The notes beneath the pieces are model-generated. The model did not search any database. It was not told the DNA's origin and was given only the letters and a program-made list of their open reading frames with translations. From an uncultured virus (IMG/VR IMGVR_UViG_3300034107_000607) (lineage: Duplodnaviria > Heunggongvirae > Uroviricota > Caudoviricetes): a stretch of DNA of 64,000 nt. The position numbers and the translations under genes were made by a program. The stretch lies in the IMG/VR virus record IMGVR_UViG_3300034107_000607; one strand, 5' to 3'. Below, piece after piece: positions 9,611-52,222 of this stretch (within the stretch, counting starts at the first letter, position 1; each line of letters begins with the position of its first letter).

Positions 9611-9796
9611 TTATTCAGCACTTTCCTTAGTAACAGGTTCTTGTTGTGATTGATTTTCACGAACAAAATTTGCAATTTTTTCACGTAGTGTTCCTACAGT
9701 TATCAACTCGTTACCTTTGAATGCCCCACGTTCTGTGCAAGCATCAATGATATTTACCATAGTAATCATATCACTTAAATTAATATTTGTTTCCAT
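9611..9796 (-). CDS. Conserved hypothetical protein
   Basis: IIDACTERGAFKGNELITVG motif. Confidence 0.7.
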   Translation of the reverse strand: METNINLSDMITMVNIIDACTERGAFKGNELITVGTLREKIANFVRENQSQQEPVTKESAE

Positions 9797-9798
9797 TA

Positions 9799-10461
9799 TT
9801 AGCCTTTCTTGTATGTTGATTTGGATTCAATAGCAATGAAGTATGTAACTTGATCACATACAAACTTTGAAATACCTTTTGAGCATAGTGTAACCTTATA
9901 CTTCTGCGGAATTAGTTTCAGATTTTCAGTCTTGATAATCAATTGAAATTTATCACCAGTGGAACCAAGTTCCACACCGAAAGTATCAGCAGTTGTATTA
10001 TTTGAGTCGATTGCCTTCAGTGAACAAGTATCGCCATCACCAACGAATGCAACTTCTGGTAGTTGAAGAACACCAGCAGCTTTAATTACAGATTGAAGAT
10101 CATTCCAGTCAATTTCAACTTCAACATCATTGGATGGAATAGTGATTTCTTTTTCTGGCGGGGCGATAATCATAGATTTGTCAGCAAAGTAATATCGGGT
10201 CTTTGTTTTACCTTGAGCCATCGTGAAATGATTACTTTCAAATTGAACATCTGGTTCACCGAATAGTCCATAAGTAGATAGGAAACGAGACATGTCATAA
10301 ACACAGGCTTCTGAAGGAATCTCGTCCTCAATATTTGCAATAGCCATTACAGTCTTTTGTGGACTGATAGTGCGCAGTTGTTTGCCGGGTTTAAAGATAA
10401 TGGATGGGTTAATTGTCGCAAAATTCTTGAGAACTGTGAGTGTGCGTTCAGAAAATTTCAT
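9799..10461 (-). CDS. 45: Sliding clamp (gp45)
   Basis: MKFSERTLTVLKNFATINPSI, YFIAIE. Confidence 0.95.
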   Translation of the reverse strand: MKFSERTLTVLKNFATINPSIIFKPGKQLRTISPQKTVMAIANIEDEIPSEACVYDMSRFLSTYGLFGEPDVQFESNHFTMAQGKTKTRYYFADKSMIIAPPEKEITIPSNDVEVEIDWNDLQSVIKAAGVLQLPEVAFVGDGDTCSLKAIDSNNTTADTFGVELGSTGDKFQLIIKTENLKLIPQKYKVTLCSKGISKFVCDQVTYFIAIESKSTYKKG

Positions 10462-31821: not shown

Positions 31822-33078
31822 ATGAAAACACCAACTGTTGAAGAATTTAGATCTGTTTTCCTAGTAGGCGGCGCCGTCCGTGACATGCTGATGGGTCTGG
31901 AACCCAAGGACCGAGACTATGTTGTCGTTGGTTCATCTCCTTCTGACATGCTGGCTGCTGGGTTTTCTCAGGTCGGTGCAGATTTTCCTGTGTTCCTGCA
32001 TCCCGAAACCGGTGATGAATATGCACTGGCTCGGCGGGAGAAAAAGACTGGGACTGGTTACCTGGGCTTTACCTCTGAATTTGGAACTGACGTGACACTG
32101 GAGGAAGACCTGGGACGGCGAGACCTGACTATCAATTCTATGGCATTTGAAGCCGAGGAAGATAACCCCGGCAGTTTCCTGGTTCATGACTTTTTCGGCG
32201 GCAAAGATGATCTGCATGCCAAAGTGCTGCGGCACACTTCTAATGCTTTCGAGGAAGATCCTGTTCGTGTTCTGCGGCTGGCCCGATTCCGTGCTCGTCT
32301 GGGTTCGGAATGGACTGTTGCTCCAGAAACTGTAACTCTGGTTGCTAAAATGGCTAAAGCTGGTGTCCTGAATGAACTGACTGCCGAACGTGTCTGGAAG
32401 GAACTGTCACGGGCAATGGAAGAGGAATTTCCTCGCCTGTTCTTTGATACTCTGCTGGAGTGCGATGCACTGCATGTTCTGTTCCCAGAAGTGTATCGAC
32501 TGAAGACTGCTCTGGAGTCACGCCGTTGGCACCCAGAAGGTGATGCATACGAACACACCATGATTGTTCTGACTCAAGCCGTTCGTAAAGGTTTTGATCT
32601 GCAGACTCGACTGGCATGTCTGGTACATGACTTTGGTAAGGGTCTGACACCACGTGATCAACTGCCAAAGCACTACGGTCACGAAATGTCTGGTGTTCCT
32701 GTTACCAAAAACTTCTGTGACCGCCTGACCGTCCCTTCAAAGATGCGGGATCGAGTGATGAAAACCACTCGGTACCACATGCACATGCACAAACTGGATA
32801 CACTGAATCCAAAGACATTTGTTAATATGTTTATGGATATGGGTGCATTTAATGACCCAGAAGTTGTTTTTCTGCTGTGGTCTGTCGGTGTTTGTGATCA
32901 TAATGGTCGTCTGGGTTCAGAAAATGAGTCTACTGTCCATCTGATGAAACTGCTGGATATTTGGCATAGAGTCAAGTCTGTAAAATTTGCTGATGTTTTT
33001 CCTGACGGAGAAACTAATGTAGAACGGATCAAGGACGGTATGTTTAAAGCACGAGTTCGGGCGGTGAAAGCTGCCTGA
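31822..33078 (+). CDS. cca: Multifunctional CCA-adding tRNA nucleotidyltransferase with HD domain
   Basis: VGGAVRD, DRDYVVVG, EYALAR, RRDLTIN, EDPVRVLR, HDFGKG. Confidence 0.95.
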   Translation: MKTPTVEEFRSVFLVGGAVRDMLMGLEPKDRDYVVVGSSPSDMLAAGFSQVGADFPVFLHPETGDEYALARREKKTGTGYLGFTSEFGTDVTLEEDLGRRDLTINSMAFEAEEDNPGSFLVHDFFGGKDDLHAKVLRHTSNAFEEDPVRVLRLARFRARLGSEWTVAPETVTLVAKMAKAGVLNELTAERVWKELSRAMEEEFPRLFFDTLLECDALHVLFPEVYRLKTALESRRWHPEGDAYEHTMIVLTQAVRKGFDLQTRLACLVHDFGKGLTPRDQLPKHYGHEMSGVPVTKNFCDRLTVPSKMRDRVMKTTRYHMHMHKLDTLNPKTFVNMFMDMGAFNDPEVVFLLWSVGVCDHNGRLGSENESTVHLMKLLDIWHRVKSVKFADVFPDGETNVERIKDGMFKARVRAVKAA

Positions 33079-35812: not shown

Positions 35813-36430
35813 ATGATCCAAATTCAAGGTAAACTTGATCGTGAAGTCTACGTTGCCTGTTCTGGTGGCGTAGACTCTATGGCAGTTGTTGACTTCTTGA
35901 TGAAGAATCATAAAGTCAACCTTATGTTTTTTGACCATGGAACTGAGACTTCTCGTGAAGCTCTTGAGTTTTTGAAAGATAAGTATTTACAAAGTATTGA
36001 ATTTGGTCGTATGAGTCTAGATATTGGCGGTTTGACAAATTCAAAAGCCAAATCAGATTCATGGGAAGAATATTGGAGAACTCAGCGATATGAGTGGTTT
36101 CATTCATATTACCCACATCCAATTATTACTTGTCACCATTTAGATGATTGTGTCGAAACTTGGATTTTTAATTCATTAAATGGTAACGGTAGAATTATTC
36201 CATATTCACATAGGAATGTTATTCGTCCATTTAGACTAAATCAAAAATCCGAATTTACAAACTGGTGCCGAAATAATAATGTCCCTTGGATCGAAGACTC
36301 TTCAAATCAAGATACAAAATATATGCGCAACTTCATCCGTCACGAAATTGTTCCCAAAGCGCTTGTTGTTAACCCAGGCCTTCATAAAGTAATTCGCAAG
36401 AAGGTTTTGGAAGATTGCTGTATAGTATAA
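35813..36430 (+). CDS. tilS: tRNA(Ile)-lysidine synthetase-like (PP-loop domain only)
   Basis: ACSGGVDSM, HHLDD, IRP, WIEDSSN, RNFIR. Confidence 0.85.
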   Translation: MIQIQGKLDREVYVACSGGVDSMAVVDFLMKNHKVNLMFFDHGTETSREALEFLKDKYLQSIEFGRMSLDIGGLTNSKAKSDSWEEYWRTQRYEWFHSYYPHPIITCHHLDDCVETWIFNSLNGNGRIIPYSHRNVIRPFRLNQKSEFTNWCRNNNVPWIEDSSNQDTKYMRNFIRHEIVPKALVVNPGLHKVIRKKVLEDCCIV

Positions 36431-37812: not shown

Positions 37813-39276
37813 ATGGCTACTTTTTCACAAGCAGTTGCAAATCAAAAATCAGCGGAGGTATCTCGTACCGAGAACGGTATGAAGGCATGGGCAACTTCCG
37901 ACTCTAAGGTCCTTGACCTTTTCGGTAAGATCGGTTCAAGCCGTGGTCGTGACCTGACACCTTCGTTCTCCGCTGCACTTGCAGAAGATGAGAACCTAGC
38001 TGTTCGTGTTCTTCTATGGGCACGTGACGTCCGTTCCGGTGCTGGTGAGCGCCAGACCTTCCGTAATCTTCTTCGTTCACTCGAAGCACAGAGCCCAGCA
38101 CTAGCTGGTCGCATCATGCACAAGGTTCCAGAACTTGGCCGTTGGGACGACCTCTTTGCATATCGTGATCCTGCTAACCGCAAAAATGCACTCCGCATGT
38201 TTGCTGACGCACTCATGAATGGTGACGGTCTTGCCGCAAAGTGGGCTCCACGTCTTGCATCAAGCAAGAAGTCAACTACTCCAGGTAAGATGGAGAAGCT
38301 AAAGAACGCAAGCGAACTGCGCAAGTTCATGATGCTCTCTCCAAAGGAGTATCGTCAGATTCTTGTTGGTTCGACTCGTGTTGTTGAGTCTCTGATGTGT
38401 GCCAAGCGCTGGGACGAGATTAACTTCTCGCATGTTCCATCACTTGCTTCTGCCCGTTACCAGAAGGCTTTCGGTAAGAATGCCGCTGATGCTTACTCTG
38501 CTTATATCCGTGAGCTTCAGAAGCCACAGGAAGAGCGTGATCCAAAGGTCAAGATCAATGCTGGTGCAGTTTACCCATACGATGTTGTCAAGTCACTTCG
38601 TCATGGTAACGAGGCTGTTGCTAACGCACAGTTCGATGCTCTGCCAAACTATGTCGGTGACACCAAGATCATGCCAATGGTCGACGTGTCAGGTTCCATG
38701 GGTACTATGCTCGCTGGTGGTATGACTGCCATGGATATTGCCCTTTCACTAGGTCTGTATCTATCTTCCAAGACTTCATCTGACTTCAAGGATATGTTCA
38801 TTACTTTCACCAGTTCTGCAACTATTCAGGTTCTGAAGGGTACACTTTCCCAGAAGATGCGCCAGATGTCAGGTGCTGTTGGTTACGACACCAACCTTAC
38901 CAAGGCTTTCGATAGTCTACTACAGACTGCGAAGAGTGGTAATGTTGCACCAGATAATATGCCAGAATTTATTGCCATCATGAGTGATATGCAATTTAAT
39001 GATGCAGCAATCCGTGGTACTGACGCGACCGCACTAGAAATGGCTCGCCAAAAATATCGTGATGCTGGATATAATTGCCCAAAAATTATCTTCTGGAACC
39101 TAGCTGCTAGGGCAAGTGCAGATCAATCTCCTGTAAAGGTTAATGATCAGGGGGTTGTCATTGTATCAGGGTTTAGCCCATCAATTATGGCAACTGTTCT
39201 AGGTGCAAACCCAGAAGAGTTTACGCCTCAAGCTATGATGATGAAAGTAATCATGGATTCACGATACGACTTTTAA
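37813..39276 (+). CDS. TROVE/Ro60-like vWA protein (DUF2828-like)
   Basis: TENG, WARDVRSGAGER, GRWDDL, AAKWAPR, DVSGSM (MIDAS), SDMQF, IIFWN, SGFS. Confidence 0.8.
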   Translation: MATFSQAVANQKSAEVSRTENGMKAWATSDSKVLDLFGKIGSSRGRDLTPSFSAALAEDENLAVRVLLWARDVRSGAGERQTFRNLLRSLEAQSPALAGRIMHKVPELGRWDDLFAYRDPANRKNALRMFADALMNGDGLAAKWAPRLASSKKSTTPGKMEKLKNASELRKFMMLSPKEYRQILVGSTRVVESLMCAKRWDEINFSHVPSLASARYQKAFGKNAADAYSAYIRELQKPQEERDPKVKINAGAVYPYDVVKSLRHGNEAVANAQFDALPNYVGDTKIMPMVDVSGSMGTMLAGGMTAMDIALSLGLYLSSKTSSDFKDMFITFTSSATIQVLKGTLSQKMRQMSGAVGYDTNLTKAFDSLLQTAKSGNVAPDNMPEFIAIMSDMQFNDAAIRGTDATALEMARQKYRDAGYNCPKIIFWNLAARASADQSPVKVNDQGVVIVSGFSPSIMATVLGANPEEFTPQAMMMKVIMDSRYDF

Positions 39277-42523: not shown

Positions 42524-42593
42524 TTATTGAAAATAACTGTTGACATTTCCTCCCTTATAGTATATACTGATTCTATAAGGTAAAGGAAACCAA

Positions 42594-42871: not shown

Positions 42872-43174
42872 ATGCTGAAACTTGTTCCGTTACATACAGA
42901 ACTTACGACTCTCGGTCTTCACTATTATGAAAATGGTGGGAGTGCTTCTGTTTCTAGGACTCTATTTCGTGGTGATAAGAATAAGCATTATGACAAAATT
43001 CACACGATGATTTTGGCCCGAGGATATAAACGAGTAGTATTTAATGAGTATGGCAGTTCGGAGTATGTAAAAAAACTGAATGAAGGGCGGAATACAGCGA
43101 CAGTTAAAATTGCTCATACACCTGATGGGCATGTTTACTCTGTTTCTACAATTACTTATCATAATCACTATTAA
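42872..43174 (+). CDS. Hypothetical protein
   Basis: ORF track. Confidence 0.6.
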   Translation: MLKLVPLHTELTTLGLHYYENGGSASVSRTLFRGDKNKHYDKIHTMILARGYKRVVFNEYGSSEYVKKLNEGRNTATVKIAHTPDGHVYSVSTITYHNHY

Positions 43175-43237
43175 ATTAGTTGACAAACGATTCTGATTAT
43201 ATTAATATGTCTATGTGAAATGAAAAGGAATCATGCT

Positions 43238-43432
43238 ATGGATATTCAAGCCGCCTATGAGTTTGCAAAAAATATGCGAAATTTGGCTCGGCGTGCAGAT
43301 ACGTTTGGTTATAACCGTCAACAGATTCTTGAAGCAATGATTGATATTGCCGAGAATTATGAAGAGGTTGCTGAACGGTCTGAGATGGAAATGATTATTC
43401 AATCCCAACGTGATTGGGTGGAGGCCGCTTGA
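43238..43432 (+). CDS. Hypothetical protein
   Basis: Follows promoter at about 43180. Confidence 0.6.
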   Translation: MDIQAAYEFAKNMRNLARRADTFGYNRQQILEAMIDIAENYEEVAERSEMEMIIQSQRDWVEAA

Positions 43433-43530
43433 TGTTTATTCTTGGTTTTATCACTGGAATTGTCACAACATTGATCTGTATATGGTTAGTTTTACGGAAC
43501 CCTCCAAATTTTCTGCCATGGTAACAAACT

Positions 43531-43753
43531 AATTGTTGACAAACACACAGAATCAGTATAATATTTAAATATACCGAAACGGAGACTGACTGATGAACTT
43601 CTATAAAAAAATTGGACGAAAAGCAGCTGGTTGCTGGGGTCGCCCCGGTAACAAATATGCAAAACGTATGAGTGCCAAGGCTATTCGCCGCCTTTCTAAA
43701 AATTATGAATAAAAGTTAAAAATAATTGTTGACAAACACACAGAATCAGTATA
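43531..43753 (+). repeat. Duplicated 30-bp promoter AATTGTTGACAAACACACAGAATCAGTATA (43531-43560, 43724-43753) flanking a small basic ORF
   Basis: Exact repeat; second copy plus TATAAATA (43759-43766) is upstream of the tRNA leader. Confidence 0.85.
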
Positions 43754-43853
43754 TATTATATAAATAAACCAAATAATGGATGAATACAGCAACTAAAATT
43801 GTTTGATATACAAAACCAAGCTCATCCAGATTAAAACAAAACAGAGGACTAAA

Positions 43854-43913
43854 ATGACTTACTTTATTTGCAAATTTGAGGAATATATGACTTGGGAGGG
43901 TTCCCGAGACTGA
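43854..43913 (+). CDS. Putative attenuator leader peptide MTYFICKFEEYMTWEGSRD
   Basis: SD AGAGGA at 43843-43848; codons match downstream tRNA specificities; overlaps antiterminator strand. Confidence 0.8.
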   Translation: MTYFICKFEEYMTWEGSRD

Positions 43914-43942
43914 TATCTTATGCAAATAAGTATATAGTTTTA

Positions 43943-43979
43943 GAACCCTCCTGGAAAAATCCTCGGAGGGTTTTTTATT
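43943..43979 (+). terminator. Intrinsic terminator (attenuator) before tRNA cluster
   Basis: AACCCTCC...GGAGGGTT stem followed by TTTTATT. Confidence 0.85.
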
Positions 43980-43991
43980 GCTCTTTGACAA
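43979..43991 (+). promoter_or_regulatory. boxA-like antitermination element
   Basis: TGCTCTTTGACA versus rrn boxA consensus TGCTCTTTAACA, just before the first tRNA. Confidence 0.65.
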
Positions 43992-43996
43992 TTTAG

Positions 43997-44070
43997 GTTC
44001 CTATAGCTCAATGGTAGAGCATTCGCCTGATAAGCGAGAGACCGAGGATCGTTACCTCGTAGGAACACCA
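43997..44070 (+). tRNA. tRNA-Ile(GAU)
   Basis: Cloverleaf, anticodon loop CTGATAA, encoded CCA; atypical T-loop ATCGTTA. Confidence 0.88.
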
Positions 44071-44075
44071 AATAT

Positions 44076-44159
44076 GGGTCGGATGCCACAAGGTGTGGCA
44101 GCGGATTGTAAATCCGTCGGGGAAACCCACGGCAGGTTCGATTCCTGCCCGACCCACCA
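44076..44159 (+). tRNA. tRNA-Tyr(GUA)
   Basis: Loop TTGTAAA, long variable arm, TTCGA, CCA. Confidence 0.93.
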
Positions 44160-44163
44160 AAAT

Positions 44164-44239
44164 GTAGCCCTGGTATAACTGGTGTGTACGCTAGTCTGAA
44201 AAACTAGAGGATGCGGTTCGATCCCGCGGGGCTGCACCA
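44164..44239 (+). tRNA. tRNA-Phe(GAA)
   Basis: Loop CTGAAAA, TTCGA, CCA. Confidence 0.92.
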
Positions 44240-44242
44240 TTA

Positions 44243-44342
44243 TTCTGATGATACACTGGTTAATCCATCATAGAAAAGTAGGTATGCGTATCTGTTGTCC
44301 GACGATAACTTCATAGGGGTAAGGAACAGTGTATCTTCTGAA
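44243..44342 (+). ncRNA. Unknown structured RNA 1 within tRNA cluster
   Basis: Closing stem GATACACTG/CAGTGTATC, non-coding, between two tRNAs. Confidence 0.5.
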
Positions 44343-44346
44343 TAAT

Positions 44347-44423
44347 GGCGCATTGGACTTCTTGGCGAAGGTCGCCGCCCTTTCAAGGCGGAGAAACGGG
44401 TTCGAAACCCGTATGCGCTACCA
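44347..44423 (+). tRNA. tRNA-Glu(UUC)
   Basis: Loop CTTTCAA, TTCGA, CCA. Confidence 0.93.
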
Positions 44424-44431
44424 AAATTTAC

Positions 44432-44517
44432 GGACCGCGTCCTATCATTGGTCAATAGGAACAGGCTCTTAACCTGTCGCGAAAGCTATCTGGGTTCAAT
44501 TCCCAGGCGGTTCACCA
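44432..44517 (+). tRNA. tRNA-Lys(CUU) with extended variable arm
   Basis: ACAGG-CTCTTAA-CCTGT, 12-nt variable region with GAAA loop, CCA. Confidence 0.85.
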
Positions 44518-44525
44518 AACTATAC

Positions 44526-44613
44526 GGTCCAGGTGCTCTCATTGGTCAAGAGCGGTGTCCTTTTAAGTCACTACCGAAAGGTTATAAGGGTTCAATTCCC
44601 TTCTGGATCTCCA
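44526..44613 (+). tRNA. tRNA-Lys(UUU) with extended variable arm
   Basis: GTGTC-CTTTTAA-GTCAC, variable ACC-GAAA-GGT, CCA. Confidence 0.82.
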
Positions 44614-44717
44614 TTAACTTTATGATGCACTAGGCGTATAGGGGTTGCTCCCGAAAACGATAAAACCTTGCGCTGGAATGTTCTCAATAAGAACCCTAGT
44701 GCAGCATTAAGTTAATG
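44612..44717 (+). ncRNA. Unknown structured RNA 2 within tRNA cluster
   Basis: CATTAACTT/AAGTTAATG and TGCACTAGG/CCTAGTGCA stems, internal hairpins. Confidence 0.55.
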
Positions 44718-44722
44718 ATCAT

Positions 44723-44794
44723 GGCGTCTCTAAGTGGTTTAGACGGGTCTCTCATAAGGATCTAGGGTCGGTTCAACTCCGACAGACGCTACCA
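44723..44794 (+). tRNA. tRNA with CAU anticodon (Met or Ile2), shortened D-arm
   Basis: Loop CTCATAA, T-arm GTCGG-TTCAACT-CCGAC, CCA. Confidence 0.75.
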
Positions 44795-44810
44795 ACTATA
44801 AAGGCGAAAA

Positions 44811-44987
44811 TTGGATATTAAATATTTTTCTTCATGGGAATGGCAACCAATAGAATACATGCCAGCTGGATGTTCATATGTTCTTGTAAGAGAAGACGGC
44901 GGAAATACCAGAGAACTGTGTTCTTGCGACTACTGGTGGTTATCAAAGGAAAAGAAAGATCTATACACTACGTTTAGATTTCAATGA
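44811..44987 (+). CDS. Small hypothetical protein (WQPIE motif)
   Basis: Manual ORF, TTG start. Confidence 0.45.
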   Translation: MDIKYFSSWEWQPIEYMPAGCSYVLVREDGGNTRELCSCDYWWLSKEKKDLYTTFRFQ

Positions 44988-45006
44988 TTAATAAATAGTA
45001 AATAAT

Positions 45007-45088
45007 GGCGCCTGGCCAGGACGGTAATGGGTCGGATTGCAAATCCGAAGCACGAAAGTACTCGGTTCGACTCCGAGAGGCGCCTCCA
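45007..45088 (+). tRNA. tRNA-Cys(GCA) with extended variable arm
   Basis: TCGGA-TTGCAAA-TCCGA, U73, variable AC-GAAA-GT, CCA. Confidence 0.9.
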
Positions 45089-45105
45089 AAATTAAAAGGT
45101 ATATC

Positions 45106-45444
45106 ATGATAGATAAAGCATTTGAATTGATTATGAAAGCATTTAGTGGTGAACAACTCACCGAGGACGAAAACAAATACTTGCGTGCACGTAATGCTAA
45201 GTATGAGCTTGTTCGATATGTTTACATGGAAAAGATGAAGCACGAAGGTTCGGGTTTAACCAATTTTCAATTCTCTCCTGGCGAGTCATTTATAGACACA
45301 CCGATCATTGATATTGTCAATGAACTTTTAAAAATGAACGAATCCATCAAAAATGGTAACTATGAAGTTGTAGACTTTGGCGATTCAAACCGGAAACACA
45401 ATCCACCACATACTGGAAAAACAAAAAGGACATTGGTAAACTAA
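45106..45444 (+). CDS. Hypothetical protein
   Basis: ATG after tRNA-Cys; the track's upstream extension overlaps the tRNA. Confidence 0.65.
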   Translation: MIDKAFELIMKAFSGEQLTEDENKYLRARNAKYELVRYVYMEKMKHEGSGLTNFQFSPGESFIDTPIIDIVNELLKMNESIKNGNYEVVDFGDSNRKHNPPHTGKTKRTLVN

Positions 45445-45669
45445 TGATATGTTGGATACTTCTCAAAAATCTCGACTCTTATAAAGCACTTTGCCATGAA
45501 GAAGGAATAAACCCCTATATTATAGAGCAAACTGAAGACAAAGCACATGTTCAAATGACAGCAAATACTGCTTCAACTTGGAACATGGTTGGTTATTGGT
45601 ACGAAATGGGTTGACATTTTCCTTCTTATAGTATATACTGATTCTATAAAGTAGAAAAGGATCCCACAA

Positions 45670-51706: not shown

Positions 51707-52222
51707 ATGAGAAAATATTTGTGCTTCCTTGATATTGATGGAGTCCTCACATCACAGAGAGTGCATAAGACCTATCAAGGCGAATATGGAATGTGGTGTC
51801 AATTCGATCCCATAGCAGTTCAATTTTTTAATTGGATCCATGACACATATCCAGTTGAGTTTGTTCTCATGTCGACTTGGAAAAATGGACTTCGGAATGA
51901 TGATCAAATGACGGAACATTGGGTTCGGTCAGCATTTGCAAATTCTGGGTTCCGGGGCGAGTTTGCAAGTCCTTGGAAAACAGACCCTGATAATTTTGCG
52001 CCAGTAAAAAAGTGGGATCGAGGTAATGAAGTCAAAGATTACCTCGAAACATACGCTACTGATGTAGACGATTTTGTTCTGTTCGATGATAATCGGTATC
52101 GGTTTAATGAAATCCTTGGTAAGAGGCGGCTTGTTCAGACTGATGCAGATAATGGATTATTGCATAAACACATGCTTAACGCTGTTAGTCTGATGGGTAC
52201 TTGGGAGAAAAAGAATGTTTGA
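51707..52222 (+). CDS. HAD-domain protein (RNA-repair-associated type)
   Basis: FLDIDGVL, STW, RGNEV, FVLFDD, GL. Confidence 0.75.
   Translation: MRKYLCFLDIDGVLTSQRVHKTYQGEYGMWCQFDPIAVQFFNWIHDTYPVEFVLMSTWKNGLRNDDQMTEHWVRSAFANSGFRGEFASPWKTDPDNFAPVKKWDRGNEVKDYLETYATDVDDFVLFDDNRYRFNEILGKRRLVQTDADNGLLHKHMLNAVSLMGTWEKKNV

Follow-up and report, generated by a model that had tools for sequence, protein, structure and literature searches.

Among the leader-peptide attenuators of enterobacteria, thrL (Thr/Ile) and ilvL/ivbL (Ile/Leu/Val) are multivalent; others are trpL, hisL, pheL and leuL. A component of the translation machinery can be controlled in the same manner, as in the pheM leader of E. coli pheST, an attenuator that responds to the supply of charged tRNA. 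The locus analysed here, which precedes a cluster of tRNA genes in an uncultured phage, resembles the enterobacterial attenuators in its general plan: a promoter, a short ORF in which regulatory codons abound, predicted mutually exclusive helices of the 1:2, 2:3 and 3:4 types, and a terminator placed just before the regulated genes. It is also alike in that a ribosome terminating translation of the leader would mask the antiterminator strand. With T-box riboswitches it has in common that tRNA-related genes would be tuned to the state of a given tRNA by a choice between terminator and antiterminator.

The reason why phages carry tRNA genes has been a question for 50 years and, to our knowledge, the regulation of these genes is almost unstudied. 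In the parts available of three papers, phage tRNAs are proposed or shown to stand in for host tRNAs that tRNA-targeting defences have removed (PMC10264068, PMC11555353, PMC11464382); these papers concern the tRNAs themselves, and the same parts mention no leader ORF or attenuator. Full-text searches, with subscription journals and the older phage literature outside their scope, found no description of leader-peptide control of tRNA genes.

The DNA under study (hereafter, the window) is a stretch of 64,000 nt from an uncultured virus of the Caudoviricetes (IMG/VR record IMGVR_UViG_3300034107_000607). An earlier note, made from its sequence alone, had proposed that a 19-codon ORF located upstream of eight tRNA genes is the leader of an attenuator sensing the tRNAs encoded by those genes. 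The window and its relatives contain the sequence elements of such a device, predicted alternative folds, and leader codons that co-vary with the tRNA genes. Our main conclusion, to which we assign a probability of about 0.8, is that a ribosome-mediated leader-peptide transcription attenuator gates the phage tRNA operon; the phage probably makes the tRNAs of the cluster mainly when ribosomes run short of them.

RESULTS

The source phage and its genomic setting

The phage is uncultured and T4-like: its DNA polymerase, of the gp43 type, shares 43% identity with the cyanomyovirus enzymes, and the phage also encodes gp46/47-like nuclease subunits and topoisomerase II subunits. Sixteen lake-water metagenome runs contain the stretch almost in full. 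Three IMG/VR copies are 100% identical over the leader, so they provide no variation to learn from. One near-identical IMG/VR record of the same phage (G001) was used for the sequence beyond the window. RNA libraries (four runs) contained contigs of relatives' tRNAs, plus one 55-nt piece in a run that is probably DNA, and were uninformative on transcript ends and expression.

Four further genes in the window, specifying a CCA-adding enzyme, a TilS-family PP-loop protein, a DUF2828/DUF7788 protein and a protein with an RNA-repair HAD domain (Table 1), together look like a toolkit for tRNA maturation and repair. These tRNA-upkeep genes fit the attenuator reading, without demonstrating an anti-nuclease role.

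As a separate observation, tRNA genes with a CTA anticodon (amber-suppressor type) are present in G001 (locus L062) and in the relatives G002, G003 and G004, and a relaxed ARAGORN search called a tRNA with anticodon TCA in G001. Recoding of stop codons is not indicated in the window, where ORFs cover 84% under the standard code and reading through TAG, TGA or TAA adds similar amounts.

Table 1. Positions of the features discussed, in window coordinates
Feature	Position	Strand	Details
Sigma70-type promoter	43729-43757	+	TTGACA 43729-43734, 17 nt, TATATT 43752-43757; 11/12 positions match
Shine-Dalgarno AGAGGA	43843-43848	+	5 nt upstream of ATG
Long hairpin (predicted anti-antiterminator, 1:2 equivalent)	43849-43943	+	
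Leader ORF	43854-43913	+	ATG 43854, 19 sense codons, TGA 43911-43913; peptide MTYFICKFEEYMTWEGSRD
Putative sensing codons 3-12	43860-43889	+	TAC TTT ATT TGC AAA TTT GAG GAA TAT ATG
Antiterminator 5' strand (predicted)	43894-43903	+	GGGAGGGTTC; codons 14-17
Antiterminator 3' strand (predicted)	43943-43952	+	also the terminator 5' arm
Intrinsic terminator	43944-43976	+	arms AACCCTCC 43944-43951 / GGAGGGTT 43965-43972, small inner stem, then T6
tRNA-Ile(GAT)	43997-44070	+	
tRNA-Tyr(GTA)	44076-44159	+	
tRNA-Phe(GAA)	44164-44239	+	
tRNA-Glu(TTC)	44347-44423	+	
tRNA-Lys(CTT)	44432-44517	+	86 nt
tRNA-Lys(TTT)	44526-44613	+	88 nt
tRNA, CAT anticodon	44723-44794	+	
tRNA-Cys(GCA)	45007-45088	+	82 nt
CCA-adding enzyme	31822-33078		
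TilS-family PP-loop protein	35813-36430		
DUF2828/DUF7788 protein	37813-39276		PHROG label 'RNA-binding protein'
'Swiss Army Knife' RNA-repair HAD domain	51707-52222		
Second leader of the window phage	~64537-64700 (window-equivalent, on the G001 contig; locus L062)	-	32 codons, terminator

Organisation of the leader and of the tRNA cluster

The promoter, the Shine-Dalgarno sequence and the 19-codon ORF that the earlier note had described were all found as claimed when the sequence was checked, and the ORF list contains no ORF of note between the promoter and the leader. Near-identical early promoter cassettes (TTGACA-17-TATAYT, with common flanks) occur in the window at 42540, 43536, 43729 and 45611, and further copies of the promoter at 43729 lie elsewhere on G001. 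The ten sensing codons specify Y F I C K F E E Y M, which are exactly the seven amino acids served by the eight downstream tRNAs, and all ten can be decoded by these tRNAs. The mismatches are the ACT codons at positions 2 and 13 and the last five sense codons (Trp, Gly, Ser, Arg and Asp), for which the cluster has no tRNA.

An ORF of 81 amino acids on the opposite strand (43991-43746, minus strand) was considered and rejected: its ends are not conserved, the neighbouring genes are all on the plus strand, and it accounts for none of the codon/tRNA matching. The antisense frame over the leader is free of stop codons for 81 codons in the window and for 52-67 in three relatives (4/4 of the variants of this leader type, type 1), probably as a by-product of the conserved sense sequence.

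ARAGORN identified eight tRNA genes at 43997-45088, the first of them ∼20 nt downstream of the end of the terminator. A consensus scan found no promoter-like site matching at ≥10/12 positions between the terminator and position 45100, beyond the end of the cluster; transcription of the tRNAs must therefore pass the hairpin.

Several features of the cluster were recorded apart from the leader. The variable arms of both tRNA-Lys genes and of the tRNA-Cys gene are long, an uncommon feature in these tRNA species. Structured, conserved elements are present between tRNA genes (window 44240-44346 and 44614-44722; locus L013 2379-2468 and 2680-2783; locus L014 3240-3350), in which an internal loop (TGATGAT / ATCTTCT) separates the outer stem TTATTY...RAATAA from the inner stem ACACT/AGTGT. 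They are reminiscent of Y-RNA-like RNAs or of the stable RNAs encoded in the T4 tRNA cluster, and had no match in Rfam; in one relative, ARAGORN labelled as 'tRNA-???' a copy that includes a T-arm-like part. Finally, the motif GCTCTTTGACAATTTAG, located at 43980-43996 between the terminator and the first tRNA with no -10 box after it, recurs before tRNAs or other structured RNAs in L020, L023, L057 and G003.

Leader codons follow the downstream tRNA genes in related phages

Relatives were sought through a neighbouring protein, through the pattern of the long-armed tRNA-Cys (28 loci in 19 distinct contexts) and through a leader pattern. At 10 of the 19 distinct tRNA-Cys loci no leader was present in the range fetched. 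When the pattern GGGAGGGTTCC...AACCCTCC was scanned against viral contigs, five of the eight non-identical loci examined proved to be unrelated DNA; in metagenomes the scan rendered at least six leaders (6/80 among the matches listed), the rest being mostly unrelated DNA. In addition to that of the window, 13 leader loci were assembled, of which one is truncated where its contig stops; 12 distinct complete peptides were obtained. All come from related uncultured phages, and the leaders are not independent samples because they are homologous. An ATG-initiated ORF of 19-38 codons was found in 13/13 complete leader loci, and the terminator stem starts 23-32 nt past the stop codon in the 10/10 leaders measured. 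A promoter just upstream is visible in most relatives; Shine-Dalgarno sequences are weak or distant in some, and L027 has GAGGA at a spot similar to that of the window.

The earlier note had predicted that leader codons should co-vary with tRNA content among relatives, and a match was indeed observed over 14 leader loci, including two swaps within a genome, with G006, L041 and L037 left out of the tRNA scoring as their contigs end. The limits of the clusters were set by eye, and several tRNAs of the relatives were missed by ARAGORN or called with anticodons of two or four bases. Some of the tRNAs are relaxed ARAGORN calls and three genes were read by eye: the Cys gene of L057 (32.4 bits in Rfam), a Tyr-like gene of G003 (tRNA-clan hit, 32 bits) and a Tyr-like gene of G002, which had no ARAGORN or Rfam call and was assigned by its likeness to called Tyr genes.

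In G002 (MHHTMTIRCEKFY...), a 12-residue prefix uses exactly the 10 amino acids of the tRNA cluster (P = 1.2e-4), and in its sister G005 (MHIMRCEKFY...) a 10-residue prefix uses exactly the nine of its own cluster (P = 1.6e-4); two Thr codons and a tRNA-Thr are present in G002 and both are absent from G005. The type-1 relative L027 (MKRFICTNEWYMPWEGSQD) has gained Trp and Thr codons along with tRNA-Trp and tRNA-Thr. In L057 the ORF is identical in nucleotide sequence to that of the window; flanks, terminator loop and tRNA order differ, and the tRNAs serve the same seven amino acids. L066 bears an E9K change that stays inside the amino-acid set of its tRNAs. There are exceptions: G003 has a tRNA-His and L027 a tRNA-Val with no corresponding codon in the leader, and the partial leader L135 contains AGA with no tRNA-Arg in view. 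In several cases the match holds at the amino-acid level only, as for CGC/CGT versus Arg(TCG) and GTA versus Val(GAC) in the first leader of G004.

A different arrangement was observed in another phage (L028, ∼9700-10000 in the tRNA-Cys orientation), where a 44-codon ORF with seven Cys codons, followed by a terminator, lies directly before a tRNA-Cys gene. This arrangement may represent a form of the attenuator devoted to one amino acid, or the ORF may specify a metal-binding peptide.

Two genomes contain two leaders each. In the window phage, the second one (peptide MTSLHVSSLSAQWTQDNNPGRQVLIGRGSGLF) is found ∼0.5 kb past the end of the window and is followed by a terminator and ∼32 tRNA genes. 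Its own cluster can decode 28 of its 31 codons and matches the other three at the amino-acid level, with none unmatched; cluster 1, that of the window, can decode just 2/31. A TTGACA-N17-TATAAC site, seen by eye after the terminator of this second leader, could bypass this gate. The relative G004, a complete genome of 218 kb, has a first leader (MIRQPQPQMNNKRQVFTCEYIRMCEGSI) that precedes tRNA genes for Cys, CAT, Gln, Pro, Lys, Lys, Asn, Phe, Ile, Tyr, Glu, Val, Thr and Arg, and the first 24 residues after its Met are exactly the 13 amino acids of this 14-tRNA cluster (P = 2.5e-5). Its second leader (MLSTHSSISRQAINLPGVWTDGDGLL) stands before a further 21 tRNA genes, among them those for Ser, Ala, Asp, Leu, Trp, Gly and His. 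Of the codons in leader 1, 20/27 are decodable by its own cluster and 11/27 by the other one, while the values for leader 2 are 23/25, with none unmatched, and 6/25. Both Ile codons of leader 2 are ATA, a codon readable by a tRNA with a CAT anticodon if this is lysidine-modified.

This division of labour bears on the possibility that the attenuator senses general translation capacity (overall ribosome speed, or the coupling of transcription to translation, for example after host shut-off), the codon match being secondary. Such a sensor would agree with the leader of G006, which includes all 20 amino acids in 38 codons, with that of L041, which includes 19, and with those codon matches that hold at the amino-acid level only. 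However, where one genome has two leaders, these divide the amino acids between them in line with their own clusters (28/31 versus 2/31, and 23/25 versus 6/25), which the sensing of speed does not require, and this explanation is considered unlikely. A leader that responds to the particular tRNAs it precedes is the reading preferred here.

Predicted alternative pairing of the leader RNA

The earlier note had placed an intrinsic terminator with a U-tract between the leader and the first tRNA, a 10-bp antiterminator, and a long hairpin hiding the antiterminator strand, and each of these elements was recovered by calculation. The terminator hairpin (43945-43971) has an energy of -15.0 kcal/mol according to RNAfold; a consensus terminator scan had missed it because its loop is longer than 8 nt (the scan rule being 3-8 nt). 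The best duplex between GGGAGGGTTC and the strand at 43943-43952 reaches -19.6 kcal/mol, a value that was equalled in 0/200 shuffles. The minimum free energy structure of 43764-43996 consists of the long hairpin plus the terminator (z = -4.21; equally stable in 0/200 shuffles). In this predicted structure the sequence beyond the stop codon is paired, within the hairpin, to the start and sensing codons, and the antiterminator strand is buried.

To represent a ribosome in the equilibrium folding of the window leader, a footprint of 27 nt was used. The probability of the terminator was 0.96 without a ribosome, ≤0.05 when the A site was at codons 2-5, 0.14-0.65 at codons 6-10, 0.00 at codon 11, and again 0.96 when the A site was anywhere from codon 12 to the stop codon. 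The calculations thus reproduce, for the window leader, the switch between mutually exclusive helices of the trp/his type that had been postulated.

The same pairing was then compared across leaders. A MAFFT alignment misplaced L027 at the TATGCAAAT block, and the variants were therefore folded one by one. The best partner of the terminator 5' arm was the last ORF codons in 11/11 leaders, its 3' end falling between -7 and +9 nt relative to the stop codon; because the partner ends so close, the stop codon appears to be placed such that a terminating ribosome masks the antiterminator strand. An antiterminator duplex as good was obtained in 0/200 shuffles for the window, L027 and both leaders of G004, and in a fraction of 0.01 for the second leader of G001 and 0.03 for G006; the fraction was above 0.05 in 5/11 leaders (G002, 0.07; L037, 0.075; G003, 0.115; L041, 0.155; G005, 0.165). 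In the second leader of G004 the two strands are unrelated in sequence to the others but complementary over 12 bp (GGGCUACUUUGA and UCAAAGUAGCCC). The antiterminator strand of G003 carries a synonymous GGT>GGC change, with a matching A>G change in the terminator flank.

Both alternative folds are common to 4/4 type-1 variants despite their different stem sequences, and in this type the long hairpin is predicted to bury both the start codon and the antiterminator strand. The nascent transcript, as it is before the terminator 3' arm exists, was folded with ribosome occlusion for ten leaders. In 10/10 the probability of the antiterminator was 0.64-1.0 at upstream stalls, and in 10/10 it dropped when the ribosome was on the last codons. 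At equilibrium, no placement of the ribosome displaced the terminator (0.97-0.98) in G002, G005, G006 and L041, and few did so in the first leader of G004. The switch in these five leaders appears only in the nascent-transcript model, whereas that of the window is complete at equilibrium. An anti-antiterminator hairpin is not evident in the second leader of G004 and in others, for which the nascent model predicts the antiterminator to form without a ribosome.

Could the leader instead be an independent small transcript, either an sRNA or a micropeptide mRNA, that ends at its own terminator, with the tRNAs made by constitutive leak-through and the ORF being functional or nothing? The RNA is strongly structured (z = -4.21), a C-terminal E/G-G-S is conserved across leader types, and the full-length fold sequesters the start codon, all of which would suit such a transcript. 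The conserved '...EGS' end, however, can be explained as an RNA constraint, since the EGS codons are the antiterminator strand, as the paired changes in G003 also indicate. Moreover, the length (19-38) and composition of the peptides vary with the tRNA sets, and the leader peptides match none of the protein families tested. This alternative is regarded as very unlikely, and attenuation by a translating ribosome remains the favoured explanation of the paired strands.

The codon match compared with chance

The earlier note's claim that codons 3-12 equal the amino-acid set of the downstream tRNAs holds exactly, and among the 127,942 ten-residue windows in the six frames of the 64-kb sequence only one contains the exact set of seven, namely that in the leader ORF. 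In simulations, random 18-mers of phage composition reached the in-set count and coverage observed for the window leader at P = 0.0012. That the match is a coincidence of AT-rich composition, which any short ORF would show, is already disfavoured and appears extremely improbable: the seven amino acids do account for 35% of phage protein residues, but only 12 of those 127,942 windows are made solely of the seven and one covers them all, the second leader of the same phage is almost devoid of them (2/31), and the simulated P values range from 3.5e-5 to 4.5e-3 in 7/7 leaders.

DISCUSSION

The elements described can be arranged in the following scheme, in which the leader ORF would be translated and read-through into the tRNA genes would be regulated. 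Transcription by host RNA polymerase would begin at the early promoter (43729), and a ribosome would engage the 19-codon leader. Given an ample supply of aminoacyl-tRNAs for Tyr, Phe, Ile, Cys, Lys, Glu and Met/CAT, the ribosome would reach the TGA codon and cover GGGAGGGTTC; the terminator would then form, and transcription would stop 20 nt before tRNA-Ile. Should any one of the sensed tRNAs be scarce, the ribosome would stall at codons 2-11 leaving GGGAGGGTTC free to pair with the terminator 5' arm, and the polymerase would enter the eight tRNA genes. If the leader were not translated, the long hairpin would hide the antiterminator strand, making termination the default. The circuit would amount to a negative feedback on tRNA supply, with the operon on when its tRNAs limit and off otherwise. 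Candidate natural triggers may include cleavage of host tRNAs by defence nucleases, decay of the host pool and the AT-rich codon demand of the phage itself.

No cultured phage with a leader of this kind was found by blastn with the window region, the first leader of G004 and the leader of G006 against 50,697 phage records, the hits being to tRNAs only or, in one case, a 42-nt chance hit. Nor is the window leader a member of the Rfam His_leader family (RF00514), for which it scored 22.9 bits (E = 0.83; cut-off, 49); L057 scored 37.0 bits (E = 0.011), also below the 49-bit cut-off. Other Rfam hits were limited to sub-threshold ones to PyrR and mir-2208, and no T-box match was found in 43000-45600 at E values up to 1. 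On balance, we lean slightly towards the idea that leaders sampling one codon of each kind form a general, unpublished class of phage regulators that sense the supply of tRNA codon by codon.

If this were true, every tRNA operon would act on its own as a supply-and-demand circuit, triggered by a shortage of any single one of its tRNAs. The phage could replace tRNAs that host anticodon nucleases destroy, or that disappear as the host pool decays, at the very time of need, and leaders would be re-written whenever a tRNA gene was gained or lost. A leader that mirrors the tRNA genes it gates would show the phage measuring tRNA supply codon by codon, which favours supply-replacement models whether the shortage arises from defence, from decay of the host pool or from codon demand. 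Since the promoter, Shine-Dalgarno sequence and terminator are of the E. coli type, the function of phage tRNAs should be testable with simple reporters. Classical attenuation would be extended to RNA genes, and these leaders would offer a natural design for multi-input codon sensors.

The comparison with known systems shows where the phage leader would depart from them. Enterobacterial attenuators regulate biosynthetic enzymes, whereas the phage leader would regulate tRNA genes. The enterobacterial leaders contain runs of codons for one or three amino acids, whereas those of the phages are one-of-each samplers of 7 to 20; the latter, in addition, are carried by a phage and are unrelated in sequence to the enterobacterial ones. 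While pheM controls the synthetase for one amino acid, the phage leader would control the tRNAs themselves, and for many amino acids at once. Finally, a T-box binds uncharged tRNA directly and without translation, while in the phage leader the ribosome would be the sensor.
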